Shown here piece by piece: positions 3,347 to 39,133 of a stretch of DNA of 64,000 nucleotides. The notes beneath the pieces are model-generated. The model did not search any database, was not told the DNA's origin, and was given only the letters and a program-made list of their open reading frames with translations. The translations under genes and the position numbers were made by a program. The stretch is from Anaerolineae bacterium (GTDB lineage Bacteria > Chloroflexota > Anaerolineae > Aggregatilineales > J027), in assembly GCA_034437655.1 (NCBI GenBank), contig DAOTTU010000046.1:55115-119114 (forward strand), read 5' to 3'. How positions within the stretch are numbered: position 1 is the stretch's first letter; every line of letters begins with the position of its first letter.

Positions 3347-4063
3347 ATGCATGAGGCTGCACAGCAATGGATAGGCAAGCAAATCCCGGTTCTAGACAAA
3401 GGATTCCTTGAATTACAGGCAGTGATGGGCGATGACCTGTCGATTGTCAACGCGGCGCGGGTGTCGTTTTTGGGGGAAAGCAAAGGCCCTGAGCGCGACA
3501 AGAAACTGCTCTTTTACCTGTTGCGCAACCGTCACACCTCACCGTTTGAAATGGTAGAGTTTAAATGGCGGCTTCGTGCGCCCGTAGTCGTGTTCTGGCA
3601 ATTGGTGCGGCACCGTACGGCGAATATCAACATGCAAAGCGGCCGCTATACCCCCTTTGAGGAAAACGACTTCTACATACCAACAGAATGGCGCAGACAG
3701 TCGGCAAGCAATAAACAGGCCAGCGATGGCGTTATTGATACCGAAACTGATGCTGCCTTGCTAAAAAAACTCCTCGCACACTACGACCAGTCCTATGCAC
3801 TCTATACCGAAGCACTGGAAGCGGGTGTGGCCAAAGAGCAAGCGCGGTTGTTCTTGCCAGCATTTGCCGTCTATTACACCGCTGTCTGGAAGATTGACGC
3901 CCATAACCTGATGCACTTCCTCAGCCTGCGCATGGCACCTGACGCCCAATGGGAAATTCGCCAGTATGCGGCCGCAATGTATCCCATTTTCGCGGCAATT
4001 TTACCCTGGACCGCCGAAGCCTTCCGTGAATATCGAATGCCGACGCTGGACCTACCTGAGTAG
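3347..4063 (+). CDS. thyX: FAD-dependent thymidylate synthase
   Basis: NAARVSF, HTSPFEM, RHRTANINMQSGRY (RHRx7SxR signature), EQAR, LMHFLSLR..AQWEIR. Confidence 0.96.
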   Translation: MHEAAQQWIGKQIPVLDKGFLELQAVMGDDLSIVNAARVSFLGESKGPERDKKLLFYLLRNRHTSPFEMVEFKWRLRAPVVVFWQLVRHRTANINMQSGRYTPFEENDFYIPTEWRRQSASNKQASDGVIDTETDAALLKKLLAHYDQSYALYTEALEAGVAKEQARLFLPAFAVYYTAVWKIDAHNLMHFLSLRMAPDAQWEIRQYAAAMYPIFAAILPWTAEAFREYRMPTLDLPE

Positions 4064-33956: not shown

Positions 33957-34211
33957 GAAAGACTCCCACATTGAATGAATAATTTAACGACTTCATGATA
34001 ACGAGTGCATATGCTACATTCAAGCGCGTTTGCACTACGATCACCACACCCTAACGTACACTATGGTTTCAGAAGAGCCGCACTTTCGGAGGCAAACAAT
34101 TATTTTTGTGGACATTCGACAACTGATTTCTCCGACAAAATACGCTATAGTGGCGTCTGATGAAAGTTAAGTGAAAGGTATTGCCAGCACAACAAAAAAA
34201 TCGAGAGTATT

Positions 34212-34445
34212 AGCGCAAGGCCCGCCGATGCAAAAGCCATCTACAGGTGGCGGGTGACGAGGTGACGGTTCCTGCCGTGGGGCAGTGTTAACCCTGTTGG
34301 GATACGGAACACCATACAGGGAAAAATCGAGGAATCAGCGGATGCCGTCGAGGTTGCCACATCACAACCTCCATACTCTCCCTACAAAACTCAACACGGG
34401 TAGCAAAATCCTCAGTAATGAGACCACAAGCCCCTGTGATGATGT
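34212..34445 (+). ncRNA. glmS riboswitch-ribozyme (GlcN6P-activated self-cleaving RNA) with a core insertion
   Basis: Conserved A/GCGC cleavage context at 34212/34213; P1 GCCCGCC/GGCGGGT; GACGAGG 34256-34262; P2 GACGG 34264-34268 / CCGTC 34345-34349; ATCGA..CAGCGG..ATGC core; P3 GAGGTTG/CAACCTC; pseudoknot ACATCA 34359-34364 / TGATGT 34440-34445; GNRA hairpin CTCA-GTAA-TGAG 34411-34422; lies directly 5' of glmS. Confidence 0.92.
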
Positions 34446-34499
34446 CAGTTTGTCCACAAACCATTTTATAATTCTATATAACACCAGGAGAGACACAAC

Positions 34500-36347
34500 A
34501 TGTGTGGTATCGTTGGCTATACTGGCACGCGCAATGCATCCCCGCTTATTTTGACCGGGCTCCAACATCTTGAATATCGTGGTTATGATTCTGCGGGAGT
34601 GGCAGTGTTGGAGCAAAATGGTAGTATCAAGCTCCACCGCGAAGTTGGTAAGCTCATCAATCTCAAAAATAAAGTCGATGCACACCCCATCATCGGGCAC
34701 ATGGGTATTGGTCACACCCGTTGGGCCACGCATGGCGAACCTAGCGAACGTAACTCGCATCCGCACGCCAGCATGGACGGTTCAACAGTTGTAGTCCATA
34801 ACGGCATTATTGAGAATTTCATGGAGTTGCGCGAGGAACTCCAGGCAGAAGGGGTTGAATTTACCTCTGATACAGATACAGAGGTCGCGGTGCATCTCAT
34901 CGAACGCTATCTGGCGACGGGCGTAAACTTGACTGATGCTGTGCGCAAGGCTGTGCAACATTTGTCTGGAGCCAGTGCCATCGTTGTAATGAGCGTCCAT
35001 GAACCCGGGACGCTGGTTGCGGTGCGCCTCGGGAATGCGGGGGGCGTTGCGGTTGGTATCGGGGAAGATGAGATGTTTGTAGCGTCAGACATCCCCGCGA
35101 TCCTGGAACATACGCGCCGCATTGCCTTCCTCGAAAATCGCCAGATGGTGACGGTTACAGCACACGGATATTCCGCGATGTGGGTAGACACTGCAACCCC
35201 GATTGAGCCCGAGGTCCACGTTATTTCATGGGACCCGGTCAGTGCGGCGAAGGGTGAGTACCGCCACTTCATGCAAAAAGAAATCTTTGAGCAAGCCCGT
35301 ACACTGACCGACACCATGCGCGGCCGCATTGATTTCCACACTGGTGAGGTTAAGCTAGATACCTTGCCGCTTACGGTAGAAGAAGCACGAAGCATCGCTC
35401 GTATTGTAACGGTCGCCTGTGGCACCAGTTTCTATTCGGGGCAAGTTGGTAAGTTTGTGATTGAACGGCTGGCACGCATTCCCGTTGAGGTTGATTATGG
35501 TAGTGAGTATCGCTATCGTAATCCGATTCTTCAAGACGATGATGTTGTTCTGGCGATTACACAGAGCGGTGAAACCGTCGATACCCTCGCGGCCATGGAA
35601 GCTGCACAGGAACGTGGGATTCGGCGTTGGAGTATTGTCAACGCGATTGGTAGCCAGGCGATGCGTATTGCGGACGGTTATATCGGGATGCAAGTTGGCC
35701 CCGAAATTGGTGTGGCGTCCACAAAAGCCTACACAGCTAGCATTGTTGACCAGATCCTGCTTGGCCTATATCTGGGTAAATTGCGCGGCACACTCAGCCC
35801 CGAAGAACAGAGCCGTTATGGACAAGAACTGGCGCATTTACCCGAACTTGTCAGCGAGGTGCTGGACCGTGACCGTGAATTTCATGATCTGGCTTATGAA
35901 TTGCAGCACTACAGCAATTTTCTCTATCTCGGGCGCGGCATGAACTACCCCACAGCACTGGAAGGGGCTCTCAAGCTCAAGGAAATCAGCTATATTCATG
36001 CCGAAGGCTACCCGGCTGGCGAAATGAAGCATGGCCCTATCGCCTTGATTGATGAGAACATGCCAGTGGTAACCATTGCCTTGCAAGATTCGCTCTATGA
36101 AAAGATGGTCAGCCAGATTGAGCAGGCGAAAGCACGCGGTGGAATTGTGATTGCGGTGGCGACCGAGGGCGATGAAGACATCCGTGAATTGGTAGACCAC
36201 GTGATTTACGTACCACCTATGCCAGAGCTGCTCAGCCCGGTGGTGGCCGTGTTGCCCTTGCAACTGTTGGCGTATCACATCGCAGTGTGGCGTGGTGCTG
36301 ACGTTGACCAACCGCGCAACCTTGCCAAGAGTGTAACGGTGGAATAA
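34500..36347 (+). CDS. glmS: Glutamine-fructose-6-phosphate aminotransferase (isomerizing)
   Basis: MCGIVG N-terminal Cys, EYRGYDSAG, GHTRWATHG, HNGIIEN, SDTDTEV, TQSGET, VASTKAY, EMKHGP, DVDQPRNLAKSVTVE. Confidence 0.98.
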   Translation: MCGIVGYTGTRNASPLILTGLQHLEYRGYDSAGVAVLEQNGSIKLHREVGKLINLKNKVDAHPIIGHMGIGHTRWATHGEPSERNSHPHASMDGSTVVVHNGIIENFMELREELQAEGVEFTSDTDTEVAVHLIERYLATGVNLTDAVRKAVQHLSGASAIVVMSVHEPGTLVAVRLGNAGGVAVGIGEDEMFVASDIPAILEHTRRIAFLENRQMVTVTAHGYSAMWVDTATPIEPEVHVISWDPVSAAKGEYRHFMQKEIFEQARTLTDTMRGRIDFHTGEVKLDTLPLTVEEARSIARIVTVACGTSFYSGQVGKFVIERLARIPVEVDYGSEYRYRNPILQDDDVVLAITQSGETVDTLAAMEAAQERGIRRWSIVNAIGSQAMRIADGYIGMQVGPEIGVASTKAYTASIVDQILLGLYLGKLRGTLSPEEQSRYGQELAHLPELVSEVLDRDREFHDLAYELQHYSNFLYLGRGMNYPTALEGALKLKEISYIHAEGYPAGEMKHGPIALIDENMPVVTIALQDSLYEKMVSQIEQAKARGGIVIAVATEGDEDIRELVDHVIYVPPMPELLSPVVAVLPLQLLAYHIAVWRGADVDQPRNLAKSVTVE

Positions 36348-36405: not shown

Positions 36406-36478
36406 GGGCCCATAGCTCAATGGTTAGAGCAGTCGGCTCATAACCGATTGGTTGGGGGTTCGAGTCCCTCTGGGCCCA
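36406..36478 (+). tRNA. tRNA with CAT anticodon, most likely tRNA-Ile2 (lysidine-modified); CCA end not encoded
   Basis: Acceptor stem GGGCCCA/TGGGCCC, D-arm AGCTCAATGGTTAGAGC, anticodon loop CTCATAA (CAT 36439-36441), T-loop GGTTCGAGTCC. The G1-C72 pair excludes initiator tRNA; the acceptor and anticodon stems resemble known Ile2 tRNAs. Confidence 0.92.
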
Positions 36479-36587: not shown

Positions 36588-36905
36588 ATGACAGTTGACG
36601 ACATTCTTGAGCAGGTGAAAGCCCTTTCGCCAGAAGAACGGGAAGAATTGGTGCGGCGGTTAGAGGAATTGCCCATAGAACACGAAGCGTTGTACGATGC
36701 GACTGGTTCTGAGAAACCCGAGCATTGGGGCAAATCATTGGCAGAAATTATGGATGAAATTGGACCTATCGAATTGAAATATCCGGAAATAGAAGACCCC
36801 GTTGAATGGGTCAAACGGTTGCGTGCTGATGAACGCAAAAGACGGCTCGGTGATCTAGATAATTGGGCCGAAAGTGACAATAGTGATCTGGAAGAGACAG
36901 AATGA
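36588..36905 (+). CDS. Putative antitoxin (acidic, upstream of and coupled to a PIN toxin)
   Basis: 105-aa acidic protein with a GGAGG SD, a TGcTATACT element at 36545-36553 and an ATGA overlap with the PIN gene. Confidence 0.7.
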   Translation: MTVDDILEQVKALSPEEREELVRRLEELPIEHEALYDATGSEKPEHWGKSLAEIMDEIGPIELKYPEIEDPVEWVKRLRADERKRRLGDLDNWAESDNSDLEETE

Positions 36906-37285
36906 CACCAGGTATTGTGGATACAACGGTCATCTTGCACTATTTTCGTAATTACCAGCCGGCTCGTAACTGGGTAGATGCAAATTCACAAGCCCTTTCA
37001 GTAACCACAATCACCTGGTTGGAAGTGATGATGGGGGCTAGCAATAAGGCGAATCAAGCTGAATCGCGCCGAATTTTGAGCAAGTTTCAGCTCATCTACC
37101 TCACAGCCTCGGATCAACAATGGGCAATGCAACGCCTTGACGAATTTCAATTTAGCCATCACATTGGCATGAACGATTGTCTTATCGCTGCGGTTGCCCA
37201 TCGTCGCCAGTTGTCCCTCTACACCCATAATCTTAAAGACATGCAGCCGATGATCAGTGAATTGGCTGTCAAACCTTACCCCTAA
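36902..37285 (+). CDS. vapC: PIN-domain (VapC-like) toxin
   Basis: IVDTTVIL, TITWLEV, NDCLIAA.A, LYTHN.KD: the PIN acidic residues are present. Confidence 0.88.
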   Translation: MTPGIVDTTVILHYFRNYQPARNWVDANSQALSVTTITWLEVMMGASNKANQAESRRILSKFQLIYLTASDQQWAMQRLDEFQFSHHIGMNDCLIAAVAHRRQLSLYTHNLKDMQPMISELAVKPYP

Positions 37286-38940
37286 GCATTGATGTGCCGC
37301 TTTGCCTTCCCTGCAACATAATCTGTGTATCCACCGGGATAGTAACTGAGTTCACCATCTTCTAATTCGACAATCTGATCTACGACGTTATCCAGAAAAT
37401 AGCGGTCATGTGAAATGATCAGCACTGCGCCTTCAAAGTGTTCAAGCTGTTCTTCCAACACTTCAACAGACTGAATGTCGAGGTTATTGGTCGGCTCGTC
37501 CAGCAGCAATAGATTCGGCTTTTGTAGCATGATAGTCGCTAGTTGCAAACGACTTCGTTCACCACCACTCATGCTATGGATGGGCTGACGAAGTTGCTCA
37601 TATGCAAATGTGAAGCTAATCAGAAATGCGACGGCCTGATCTTCACTCATTGGTTTCAAGTCACGGATGAGCGCCAGTGGCGAACGGTCTAACCAGTCAG
37701 CAAGTGTCTGGTGTTCCTGCGCGTAGTAGCCAATATTGGTGCTGGGACCAATGTCAATGAAGCCATCCAGCGGTTGTAAGTCACCTGTAATCAATTTAAA
37801 CAGCACCGATTTGCCCGCCCCATTCGGCCCCACCAGCCCAATGCGCTCACGATGACGGACAATAAAATCCAGGTCGAGGAACAAAACATCATCGTCGAAC
37901 CCCATTGACACCTGCTTAAACTCGATGGCTTTTTTGCTGCCCCGGCTGCCGTTGAGTTTGAGGTCCATCAGCTTGCGGTCAGTGACTTTTTCAATAATCT
38001 CGCCGCGTTCTTCCATACGGTCAAGCATTTTGCGACGGCTGCGGGCTTGCTTGATATGGCGTTCGTTCACTACCAGACTGGCCCACAGTTCGAAACGGGC
38101 AATGGCTGCCTCAATTTTCGCAATTTCCTTTTGCTGGGCAACGTAAAGCTGTTGTTGGCGGAGCCGGCGCAACTCACGTTCGGTCTTGTAATACGAATAG
38201 TTCCCGGCATAGTGCGTGATTTGTCCATCTTCAAGCTCAGCAATCTCCGTAACCACATCATCCAGCAGATAGCGGTCATGTGAAACGATTACGACTGCGC
38301 CGTTATAGCTGTTCAGAAAGTGTTCTAAACGAGCCTTTGCTGCCACATCGAGATGATTATCGGGTTCGTCGAGCAATAGAATGCTGGGCTGTTCAGCGAC
38401 AAGGCGCGTCAACGCTACCAACTTCTTCTGCCCCCCGCTGAGCGAGTCGGCGGGTAGACTAAAGTCCGCTTCTGTAAAGCCAAGATGCGCCAGTGTCCCC
38501 AGAACTGTACTCCGATGACGATCACCGCCAAGCGCGTTATAGTGTTCAAGGGTGCGCTGCTGACGATTCAAGACTTTAGTAAGTCGTTCTTCGTCGTTAT
38601 AGACGGCTGGGTCTGCGAGGAGTGTATCTATTTCGTCCAATTCTGCATTGACGTGGGCGAGGCGTGGTGGCGTTTGCATGGCAGCTTCTAACAAAGTTTG
38701 GCTCGGAGAAAGTATGACGTCTTGGGGCAAATAGCCTACCGTGACATCGCGTGCCAGAGTGATGGTGCCAGCATCTGGCTCAATGAGGCCGTGGATAGTC
38801 TTCAATAAGGTTGATTTCCCGGTGCCATTCGCCCCAATAAGGCCAATACGTGCGCCATTCTGTACAGCAAAGCTCAGGTCGTTGAAGATGACGCGGGTGG
38901 CGTAAGAGACTTTTAGATGATCAATGCGTAGCAGGTGCAT
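37282..38940 (-). CDS. ABC-F family ATPase (ribosome-associated; possibly ribosome-protection type)
   Basis: Two ABC domains (GANGTGKST/LSGGQ/LDEPDNHLD; GPNGAGKSV/MSGGE/LDEPTNNLD), inter-domain helical linker, no TM segments. ATG 38940 with a GGAGG SD. Confidence 0.93.
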   Translation of the reverse strand: MHLLRIDHLKVSYATRVIFNDLSFAVQNGARIGLIGANGTGKSTLLKTIHGLIEPDAGTITLARDVTVGYLPQDVILSPSQTLLEAAMQTPPRLAHVNAELDEIDTLLADPAVYNDEERLTKVLNRQQRTLEHYNALGGDRHRSTVLGTLAHLGFTEADFSLPADSLSGGQKKLVALTRLVAEQPSILLLDEPDNHLDVAAKARLEHFLNSYNGAVVIVSHDRYLLDDVVTEIAELEDGQITHYAGNYSYYKTERELRRLRQQQLYVAQQKEIAKIEAAIARFELWASLVVNERHIKQARSRRKMLDRMEERGEIIEKVTDRKLMDLKLNGSRGSKKAIEFKQVSMGFDDDVLFLDLDFIVRHRERIGLVGPNGAGKSVLFKLITGDLQPLDGFIDIGPSTNIGYYAQEHQTLADWLDRSPLALIRDLKPMSEDQAVAFLISFTFAYEQLRQPIHSMSGGERSRLQLATIMLQKPNLLLLDEPTNNLDIQSVEVLEEQLEHFEGAVLIISHDRYFLDNVVDQIVELEDGELSYYPGGYTDYVAGKAKRHINA

Positions 38941-38975
38941 AGTTACCTCCATAGAACAGGTGTGATGGATACAGG

Positions 38976-39012
38976 AAAAACAAAAACGGCTCCGGGGTGC
39001 GCCCAGAGCCGT
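38976..39012 (-). terminator. Intrinsic terminator inside the ABC-F 5' leader (attenuator)
   Basis: Minus strand ACGGCTCTGGG-(CGCA)-CCCCGGAGCCGT followed by TTTTGTTTTT, about 35 nt upstream of the start codon. Confidence 0.8.
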
Positions 39013-39043
39013 GATACAATCAAAATTAGCAAAATGTGTTACA

Positions 39044-39133
39044 TTATGACGAGGCGCAGTTCTCCAATGTAGGCTGCGCATTGCCACTCTGGCAGCTAAA
39101 TGAGAGGGTGACTGTGTCCGTCATATAAATCAT
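39044..39133 (-). CDS. Putative leader peptide (uORF) MIYMTDTVTLSFSCQSGNAQPTLENCASS
   Basis: ATG lies 6 nt after an extended -10 TGcTACAAT (hexamer 39145-39140), so it would be leaderless; stop TAA falls before the leader terminator. Confidence 0.35.
   Translation of the reverse strand: MIYMTDTVTLSFSCQSGNAQPTLENCASS

Follow-up and report, generated by a model that had tools for sequence, protein, structure and literature searches.

The question raised by this locus is what two additional hairpins do in the catalytic core of a glmS ribozyme. The locus lies within a 64,000-nucleotide (nt) stretch of contig DAOTTU010000046.1 from an Anaerolineae bacterium (assembly GCA_034437655.1; the whole stretch is referred to here as the window, and positions are counted from its first letter), and an earlier note made from the letters alone had described there a glmS ribozyme carrying a 55-nt insertion. 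The glmS ribozyme is, to our knowledge, the only known natural ribozyme with a metabolite cofactor, and the published architectures that we know of come almost entirely from Firmicutes. It is a much-used model of RNA folding and an antibacterial drug target. The earlier note treated the insert as a peculiarity of one unusual RNA; the comparisons presented here indicate instead that a two-hairpin expanded architecture is the standard, lineage-specific form of the glmS ribozyme in Anaerolineae, found in at least 120 species. We consider it rather probable that the inserted module braces the double pseudoknot from its periphery, with the ligand specificity unchanged.

The segment 34203-34445 of the forward strand, on which all features of the locus lie, is confidently identified as a complete and genuine glmS self-cleaving ribozyme directly 5' of glmS. 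The gene (34500-36347; glutamine--fructose-6-phosphate transaminase, 615 aa), which is by position the predicted target of regulation, matched NF001484 (789 bits) and TIGR01135 (765 bits) over its full length. It starts 54 nt 3' of the ribozyme end at 34445 and is preceded by a Shine-Dalgarno (SD)-like AGGAGAG (34486-34492) placed 7 nt 5' of the ATG; a terminator scan of the interval between ribozyme and gene found none, and scanning for promoters near the ribozyme gave no convincing candidate. A local search with the Rfam glmS model (RF00234) matched 34201-34415 across the full model (positions 1-167) with 29.8 bits (E = 3.7e-5), and matched no family besides glmS in the ribozyme region. The score lies below the curated gathering score of 37 bits, which is a detection cut-off and not a biological criterion, and the Rfam scan of all 64 kb at the gathering threshold reported one tRNA and not the ribozyme. 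A poor score on the standard covariance model had been anticipated in the earlier note. The alignment used a local end to bridge 61 nt of the window, as against 6 in the model, and the shortfall arises because the insert is skipped in this way, P4 is misaligned and the strand joining P3 to P4 (J3/4) is enlarged. A covariance model (R1; 113 positions, 22 pairs) was built on 29 sequences that did not include the window; it matched the window over its full length with 76.1 bits (E about 2e-16). The RF00234 match, the R1 score, the adjacent glmS gene and the location of all helices together uphold the original identification.

The insert occupies positions 34271-34325, in the strand that joins P2 to P2.1 (J2/2.1). 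With core positions numbered as in Andreasson et al. 2020 (PMC7125110), where P2.1 is formed by C28-A30/U43-G45, P2 by 34-38/61-65 and P2.2 by C2-C5/G53-G56, it takes the place of the short strand 39-42, which leads from the 5' strand of P2 to the 3' strand of P2.1. The nested structure line of Rfam displays this site as a 'hairpin loop'; the pseudoknotted fold makes it a joining strand within the double pseudoknot, and the description of the insertion as lying in the catalytic core was topologically right. For comparison, a canonical set was assembled by a loose pattern scan, from which those 37 matches were kept that had an upstream AGCGC and were followed by a GlmS N-terminus; many chance matches within coding genes, e.g. 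dnaK, were discarded. In these 37 verified canonical ribozymes, 2-3 nt and the A of AUCGA follow the 5' strand of P2 before the rest of AUCGA, and the spacing from GACGAGG to GCGGAUGCC is 20-23 nt. As the canonical strand measures 2-3 nt, the 55 nt of the window are truly extra, as the earlier note had claimed for the interval from P2 to the AUCGA strand; reducing 34271-34325 to a single U would give GGUUUAUCGA. The long J2/2.1 strand departs from the consensus and the crystal structures, where 2-4 nt join P2 to P2.1, and not from a requirement of catalysis; the variant is defined by this feature.

Within the insert, hairpin A (CTGCC-GTGG-GGCAG, 34272-34285) has 5 base pairs (bp) closed by the loop GUGG (34277-34280), and a C.U mismatch. 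The inter-hairpin linker UGUUAA (34286-34291) contains the conserved YUAA and leads to hairpin B (34292-34321), whose stem CCCTGT/ACAGGG continues into TGG/CCA; one T is bulged, and the loop has 11 nt. The A-rich tail AAAA and A34326 (34322-34326), the counterpart of a conserved GAAA-A, link hairpin B to P2.1. These elements were located by direct search and, for the hairpins, also by folding: the insert folded alone into hairpins A and B with -21.2 kcal/mol (z = -2.33; 1 of 200 shuffles was as good). The order found between P2 and P2.1 in the window, namely GGUU, hairpin A, YUAA, hairpin B and (G)AAA-AUCGA, is that of the R1 subclass definition. All coordinates and hairpins proposed earlier, including a GATG/CATC sub-hairpin in P1, proved correct by direct search. 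A pairing of the hairpin-A loop GUGG with a CCAC in the P3 loop was considered and set aside as probably coincidental; in one relative (L036) the CCAC serves P3.1.

The same module recurs in the relatives. The nearest GlmS homologues come from uncultured Anaerolineae with at most 71% identity, and upstream of about 30 of them the spacing from GACGAGG to GCGGAUGCC is 45-110 nt, versus about 22 nt in canonical ribozymes; each of these inserts folds into hairpin A, YUAA, hairpin B and GAAA. The insert is present in 29 of the 33 ribozymes found beside the nearest GlmS homologues. A pattern scan for the insert-bearing architecture in one genome per GTDB species placed the two-hairpin module in at least 120 species, all of them, among the matches listed, Anaerolineae-type Chloroflexota metagenome-assembled genomes (MAGs), which spread over Anaerolineales, Caldilineales, Ardenticatenales, Aggregatilineales, Thermoflexales and Promineifilaceae. 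The order hairpin A, YUAA, hairpin B, GAAA could be parsed in 122 of 131 distinct sequences. Hairpin A is 16-18 nt long in 108 of these 122, and its loop is GCGA in 58 and GCAA in 16 (74 of 122 with GNRA loops of these types); the form seen in the window (5 bp, GUGG, not GNRA) is a rare, short version of the usual 7-bp hairpin, with two occurrences. The linker reads CUAA or UUAA, give or take 2 nt, in nearly all of the 122, and the tail reads GAAA in 82. In the alignments A1 and A2, UAA and GAAA are invariant; the window has AAAA in place of GAAA. Hairpin B is anywhere from 10 to 61 nt long, and no two of the 122 sequences are identical. Three MAGs labelled Oceanobacillus, Zixiibacteriota and Nitrosomonadaceae (L012, L025 and L189) carry Anaerolineae-type GlmS and two-hairpin ribozymes and are probably mis-binned or mislabelled.

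Since circularity was to be avoided, 64 sequences were aligned for covariation by landmarks only, gapless and without any folding, the landmarks being GGUU, an 18-nt stretch, YUAA, 6 nt at either end of hairpin B, and GAAA-RUCGR. Paired cells amounted to 94.7%, versus 71.0% in shuffled controls (0 of 500 reached the native value, a count that overstates significance among phylogenetically related sequences and is not a probability) and 36-48% when the partner strand was slid; the covariation score was 0.67 versus 0.20. The slide controls, together with the 3-6 pair types seen per position, are the safer measures. All seven pairs of hairpin A and all five basal pairs of hairpin B changed on both sides, and an independent MAFFT alignment of 29 core sequences returned the same covariation of both hairpins. 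Among the canonical helices of the relatives, both sides had changed in four of the five basal pairs of P1 and in 2-3 of the five pairs of P2; both helices are supported in the 29-sequence alignment, where P2.1 and most of P2.2 are invariant. These patterns show that the insert is under selection for pairing, with constraint evident on hairpin A and the junction strands and not on hairpin B. Alignment of Chloroflexota glmS leaders for covariation had been suggested at the outset; in them the insert is conserved, and the pairs of both hairpins covary.

The distinctness of this architecture has a practical consequence for annotation. When R1 was applied to 41 Chloroflexota GlmS loci, it returned 33 ribozymes, comprising 28 two-hairpin forms (67-113 bits), one single-hairpin form (L007, 87 bits) and four insert-less forms (36-52 bits). 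Rfam at its gathering score recovers 13 of 29 insert-bearing relatives; the curated threshold misses about 55% of the Anaerolineae-type ribozymes, and glmS regulation in Chloroflexota is under-reported. Since about half of the Anaerolineae-type ribozymes do pass Rfam, some have already been annotated, unremarked, by automated pipelines. Adopting a subclass model of the R1 kind would close the annotation gap at once.

Apart from the insert, the canonical elements were located in the window by direct sequence search, with inspection and minimum free energy (MFE) folding for the P3-P4 half, in which the Rfam alignment is poor. The P3/P3.1/P4/P4.1 domain is intact, as are all the core strands (A|GCGC, GACGAGG, AUCGA, GCGGAUGCC, P1, P2, P2.1 and P2.2). 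The cleavage-site motif A|GCGC (34212-34216) falls on the AGCGCC consensus aligned by both Rfam glmS and R1, and A34212/G34213 is the predicted scissile bond. P1 comprises 7 bp including a G.U pair (34220-34226/34249-34255) and encloses the sub-hairpin GATG/CATC (34227-34230/34238-34241). It is followed by the invariant GACGAGG (34256-34262; Rfam glmS, R1 and direct search), in which C34258-G34259-A34260 pairs with UCG 34327-34329 to form P2.1 as in PMC7125110, a pairing that is invariant in the 64-sequence and 29-sequence alignments. P2 (GACGG 34264-34268/CCGTC 34345-34349) has U34269 and U34270 after its 5' strand, and its 3' strand comes at the end of the segment 34336-34349, which opens with CAGCGGAUG and is aligned by Rfam and R1. 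The P2.2 helix pairs C34214-C34216 with the GCG at 34338-34340 held in CAGCGGAUG, and these pairs are invariant in 29 of 29 relatives; in the class definition the partner of its 5' strand is the GGCG within CGGCGGAUG, and this pairing is present in the window. The terminal pair of P2.2, C5-G53 in the consensus, is A34217.A34337 in the window, and among the 29 relatives it is A.A in 19, C-G in nine and U-A in one (alignment A2, columns 8 and 118). It covaries, in a helix usually reported as invariant. In the 3' half, P3 (AGGTTG 34351-34356/CAACCT 34365-34370; direct search and MFE fold) is followed by the P4 domain (34395-34438), in which P4 (CACGGG 34395-34400/CCTGTG 34433-34438) carries the A-rich internal loop IL4 and the hairpin P4.1 (CTCA-GTAA-TGAG, 34411-34422) with its GNRA loop at 34415-34418. 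The P3.1 pseudoknot joins ACATCA in the P3 loop (34359-34364) to TGATGT (34440-34445).

The J2/2.1 site is not occupied by two hairpins everywhere. A scan for intermediate linker lengths gave 68 loci in a complete listing (L321-L388), in which a single hairpin followed by GA-AAAUCGA was found in about 40 Chloroflexota, 21 Clostridia and about six Caldisericota. The Clostridia forms come from gut and rumen Oscillospiraceae, Ruminococcaceae and Butyricicoccaceae and have a GAAA loop in nine of 21. The single-hairpin variants share with the window the insertion point after GGUU, the GA-AAAUCGA and often a GNRA cap, but they have one hairpin of 4-9 bp and neither the YUAA linker nor hairpin B. Among the matches listed, the two-hairpin form occurs only in Anaerolineae. 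The joining strands of the glmS core have been reported to tolerate mutation better than its helices (PMC11602151), and the distribution marks J2/2.1 as a permissive and recurrent expansion site that holds no hairpin, one or two according to lineage. Examples of the single-hairpin form in Clostridia and Caldisericota are L324, L335 and L351, and L328 and L353; the likeness to the Chloroflexota forms may reflect shared ancestry or convergence.

A further element separates the Chloroflexota ribozymes from the canonical ones. The strand GAGAGTAT (34203-34210), which ends 1 nt before A-1, is complementary to ATACTCTC (34373-34380) within the C/U-rich J3/4 (34371-34394), and the resulting leader-J3/4 helix, here P0, was recovered by a nested MFE fold of the window. 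J3/4 measures about 24 nt in the window, versus about 5 nt (GUAAG) in canonical ribozymes. Duplex energies and contiguous helices were compared between native and swapped leaders, replacing a fixed-register test that was blurred by offsets of 1-2 nt and by purine/pyrimidine bias; the relatives examined were L001-L036 and L081-L200. The native duplex was more stable in 99 Anaerolineae (-11.7 versus -9.6 kcal/mol swapped, p = 4e-13) and in the Chloroflexota single-hairpin forms (-11.4 versus -9.5 kcal/mol, p = 4e-4), and no such difference appeared in the 37 canonical ribozymes (-5.7 versus -5.5 kcal/mol, p = 0.27), in Clostridia (-6.9 versus -7.4 kcal/mol, p = 0.74) or in Caldisericota (-6.5 versus -6.1 kcal/mol, p = 0.44). 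The duplex follows P3 directly, ending at position -2 or -3. At least seven contiguous pairs at the right place were found with 35% of native and 14% of swapped leaders, the helix sequences being diverse; the compositional bias of both strands keeps the size of the effect modest. The helix also occurs in insert-less Anaerolineae (L001, L011). It is specific to the glmS ribozymes of Chloroflexota and absent from canonical Bacillota, Clostridia and Caldisericota, so that the single-hairpin forms of the latter two differ from the window in this respect too. Such a helix would keep the 5' fragment attached to the body of the ribozyme after cleavage. The hexamer CTCTCC (34376-34381), which overlaps the 3' strand of the helix, is also complementary to GGAGAG (34487-34492) of the SD; pairing with the leader and pairing with the SD would exclude each other. 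This complementarity could reflect a switch from cleavage to translation, or merely composition.

Some Anaerolineaceae combine the two-hairpin insert with a short 3' half. In these compact forms (L031, L032 (=L170, L144), L081, L089, L105 and L126) only 89-111 nt lie between P2 and the start codon, and the tail contains a short P3 and the leader-helix 3' strand, together with one hairpin of unrelated type. Motif regular expressions recognised no P3.1/IL4/P4.1 (L4) motif in them, and the Rfam model failed to align over its P3-P4 half in L031 and L032, while core and insert of the compact forms scored 93-102 bits on R1. The canonical P4 domain has apparently been lost, or replaced by the unrelated hairpin. 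The canonical P3/P4 domain lends stability to the core by way of contacts between IL4 and P2.1 and between L4 and P1 (PMC11602151), and its apparent loss in the presence of the insert and the leader helix fits, we infer, with an alternative bracing of the core by those elements.

What, then, does the insert do? Tuning or stabilising cleavage is the most plausible role that we can propose from the comparative evidence. The strand of 2-4 nt between P2 and P2.1 has been replaced by a conserved module made of UU, hairpin A, YUAA, hairpin B and GAAA-A. In the mechanism that we favour, this module would make the P2/P2.1 junction of the double pseudoknot a multi-helix junction and would act at the periphery to help the core to fold or to remain folded. 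Sensing would be unaltered, in that cleavage at A34212/G34213 in response to glucosamine-6-phosphate (GlcN6P) would still lower the expression of glmS. Hairpin A, with its fixed 6-7 bp and usual GNRA cap, would be the functional element, probably contacting a neighbouring helix together with the invariant A-rich junction strands by tetraloop docking or A-minor interactions; hairpin B would be a variable spacer pointing into the solvent. A fixed-length GNRA-capped hairpin and A-rich junction nucleotides are hallmarks of tertiary-structure scaffolding. The combination of such a hairpin A with a variable hairpin B argues for a structural brace and not for a second ligand pocket. Several points weigh against the proposal. 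No receptor was identified for the putative tertiary contact of hairpin A, and the GUGG loop of the window is not a GNRA loop, so that GNRA docking cannot literally apply there; a tetraloop-receptor motif may fit the majority of the family and not the window. The module is dispensable in some backgrounds, as shown by the insert-less ribozymes L001, L011, L028 and L030 in the same clade, and the shared descent of the aligned sequences inflates the shuffle-based support for pairing. The evidence for P4 loss consists of motif regular expressions and two Rfam alignments, a partial analysis, and cleavage, its GlcN6P dependence and the effect of the insert are predictions from sequence.

Alternatively, the two hairpins may be a neutral insertion, tolerated at a permissive surface site without functional contribution. 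Riboswitches often accept long stem-loops that leave the core undisturbed and yield low-scoring but bona fide covariance-model hits (PMC2258182), and the lineage-dependent number of hairpins, the hypervariability of hairpin B and the persistence of insert-less forms in the same clade are all what neutrality would produce. Drift at a tolerant site does not, however, readily account for the fixed length of hairpin A, its GNRA-biased loop and the invariant UAA/GAAA across at least 120 species of several orders, nor for retention in 29 of 33 neighbouring lineages, and we regard neutrality as unlikely. A more ambitious proposal, going back to the earlier note, is that the junction forms a second sensor domain, in which binding of a ligand, protein or ion, or a thermometer, gates cleavage. 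About eight conserved junction nucleotides (UU, YUAA, GAAA-A) might line a pocket near the active site, but conserved internal loops or bulges of a pocket-like kind are missing, the sole conserved loop being a generic GNRA; hairpin B varies between 10 and 61 nt without shared sequence, lineages carry anything from no hairpin to two, single-hairpin versions without YUAA exist in three phyla, and the region matches no Rfam family except glmS. A second input of this kind is highly improbable, and this part of the earlier note found no support. It is scarcely credible that the ribozyme is a decayed relic or a chance resemblance: the Rfam score of 29.8 bits under a gathering score of 37 is what one might cite for decay, yet every invariant core strand and helix is present, an intact glmS follows directly 3', and the class model built without the window gave 76 bits.

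A further alternative concerns the expression platform. Cleavage might free the C/U-rich strand of the leader helix, which would then pair with the SD of glmS, the insert helping to organise the switch. The leader helix is Chloroflexota-specific and ends 1 nt before the scissile bond, CTCTCC is complementary to the SD, and the lack of a terminator between ribozyme and gene is in keeping with such a scheme. Any C/U-rich strand would complement an SD, however, and the SD is too invariant for a covariation test; an 8-10 bp G/C-rich helix would not readily come apart once cleavage has occurred, the spacing between the ribozyme and the start codon ranges from about 50 to 300 nt, and the insert and the helix differ in their phylogenetic distributions, such that they need not act together. 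We judge this switch to be very unlikely. A bolder version, decidedly unlikely in our view, holds that Anaerolineae have remodelled the periphery of the ribozyme, that the J2/2.1 domain and the leader helix can stand in functionally for the P3.1-P4 domain apparently lost from some Anaerolineaceae, and that the leader helix couples cleavage to translation by freeing an anti-SD strand that sequesters the glmS ribosome binding site. In Bacillus, the glmS expression platform works through a 5'-OH and decay by RNase J; if the coupling were true, the leader-helix platform would differ from that route.

Set against known systems, the window shares with the canonical glmS ribozyme (RF00234; structures from Bacillus subtilis, Thermoanaerobacter tengcongensis and B. 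anthracis) the core strands, P1-P3, P3.1, IL4, P4.1 and the position in the 5' untranslated region. It differs in having 55 nt in two hairpins at J2/2.1 instead of 2-3 nt, an enlarged J3/4 whose pairing partner is the leader upstream of the cleavage site, an A.A in place of C-G at the end of P2.2, and a sub-gathering Rfam score. In HDV-family (hepatitis delta virus) ribozymes, P4 is a variable-length hairpin in a joining strand of a nested double pseudoknot, which stabilises the fold and contributes no catalytic groups. The bracing role proposed for the insert would be analogous to that of this P4 and of the canonical P3-P4 domain, the likeness to the HDV type being one of role only, as class and topology are other. 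The 'variable insertions' of riboswitches (Barrick & Breaker 2007, PMC2258182) are likewise stem-loops at permissive sites that leave the core intact and lower the covariance-model score; they are described as non-conserved, whereas in the ribozymes of the window type an entire bacterial class conserves the length of hairpin A, its loop type and both junction strands. A literature search found no description of an insertion at J2/2.1 or of Anaerolineae glmS ribozymes, the 2011 refined consensus and the structural papers lying outside that search and an optional stem at this site being possible there; the two-hairpin form is probably a new variant of glmS ribozyme architecture.

A whole bacterial class uses an expanded glmS ribozyme, in which a conserved two-hairpin domain sits inside the double pseudoknot and the leader pairs with J3/4; the P4 domain is apparently missing from some lineages. 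These ribozymes provide natural experiments in which different peripheries stabilise one catalytic core, and they mark J2/2.1 as a recurrent site, open to engineering, where three phyla carry insertions that may have arisen independently.

Some further observations concern the surroundings of the ribozyme. The organism is uncultured, and the 278-kb contig comes from the metagenome of a microbial mat. In the insert-less Anaerolineae relative L011, a 6S RNA (53.6 bits; 3381-3558) lies directly 3' of glmS. In the window, a tRNA gene (36406-36478, 74 bits), probably tRNA-Met with the anticodon loop CUCAUAA, lies about 60 nt 3' of the glmS stop codon. It is followed by two small overlapping open reading frames (36588-36905, 105 aa, and 36902-37285, 127 aa), the second with a PIN domain (PF01850), which probably encode a VapBC-type toxin-antitoxin pair. 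An ABC-F family protein is encoded on the reverse strand (37282-39087), convergent with the glmS region, and scored 528 bits against the ribosomal-protection-like ABC-F model NF000355.

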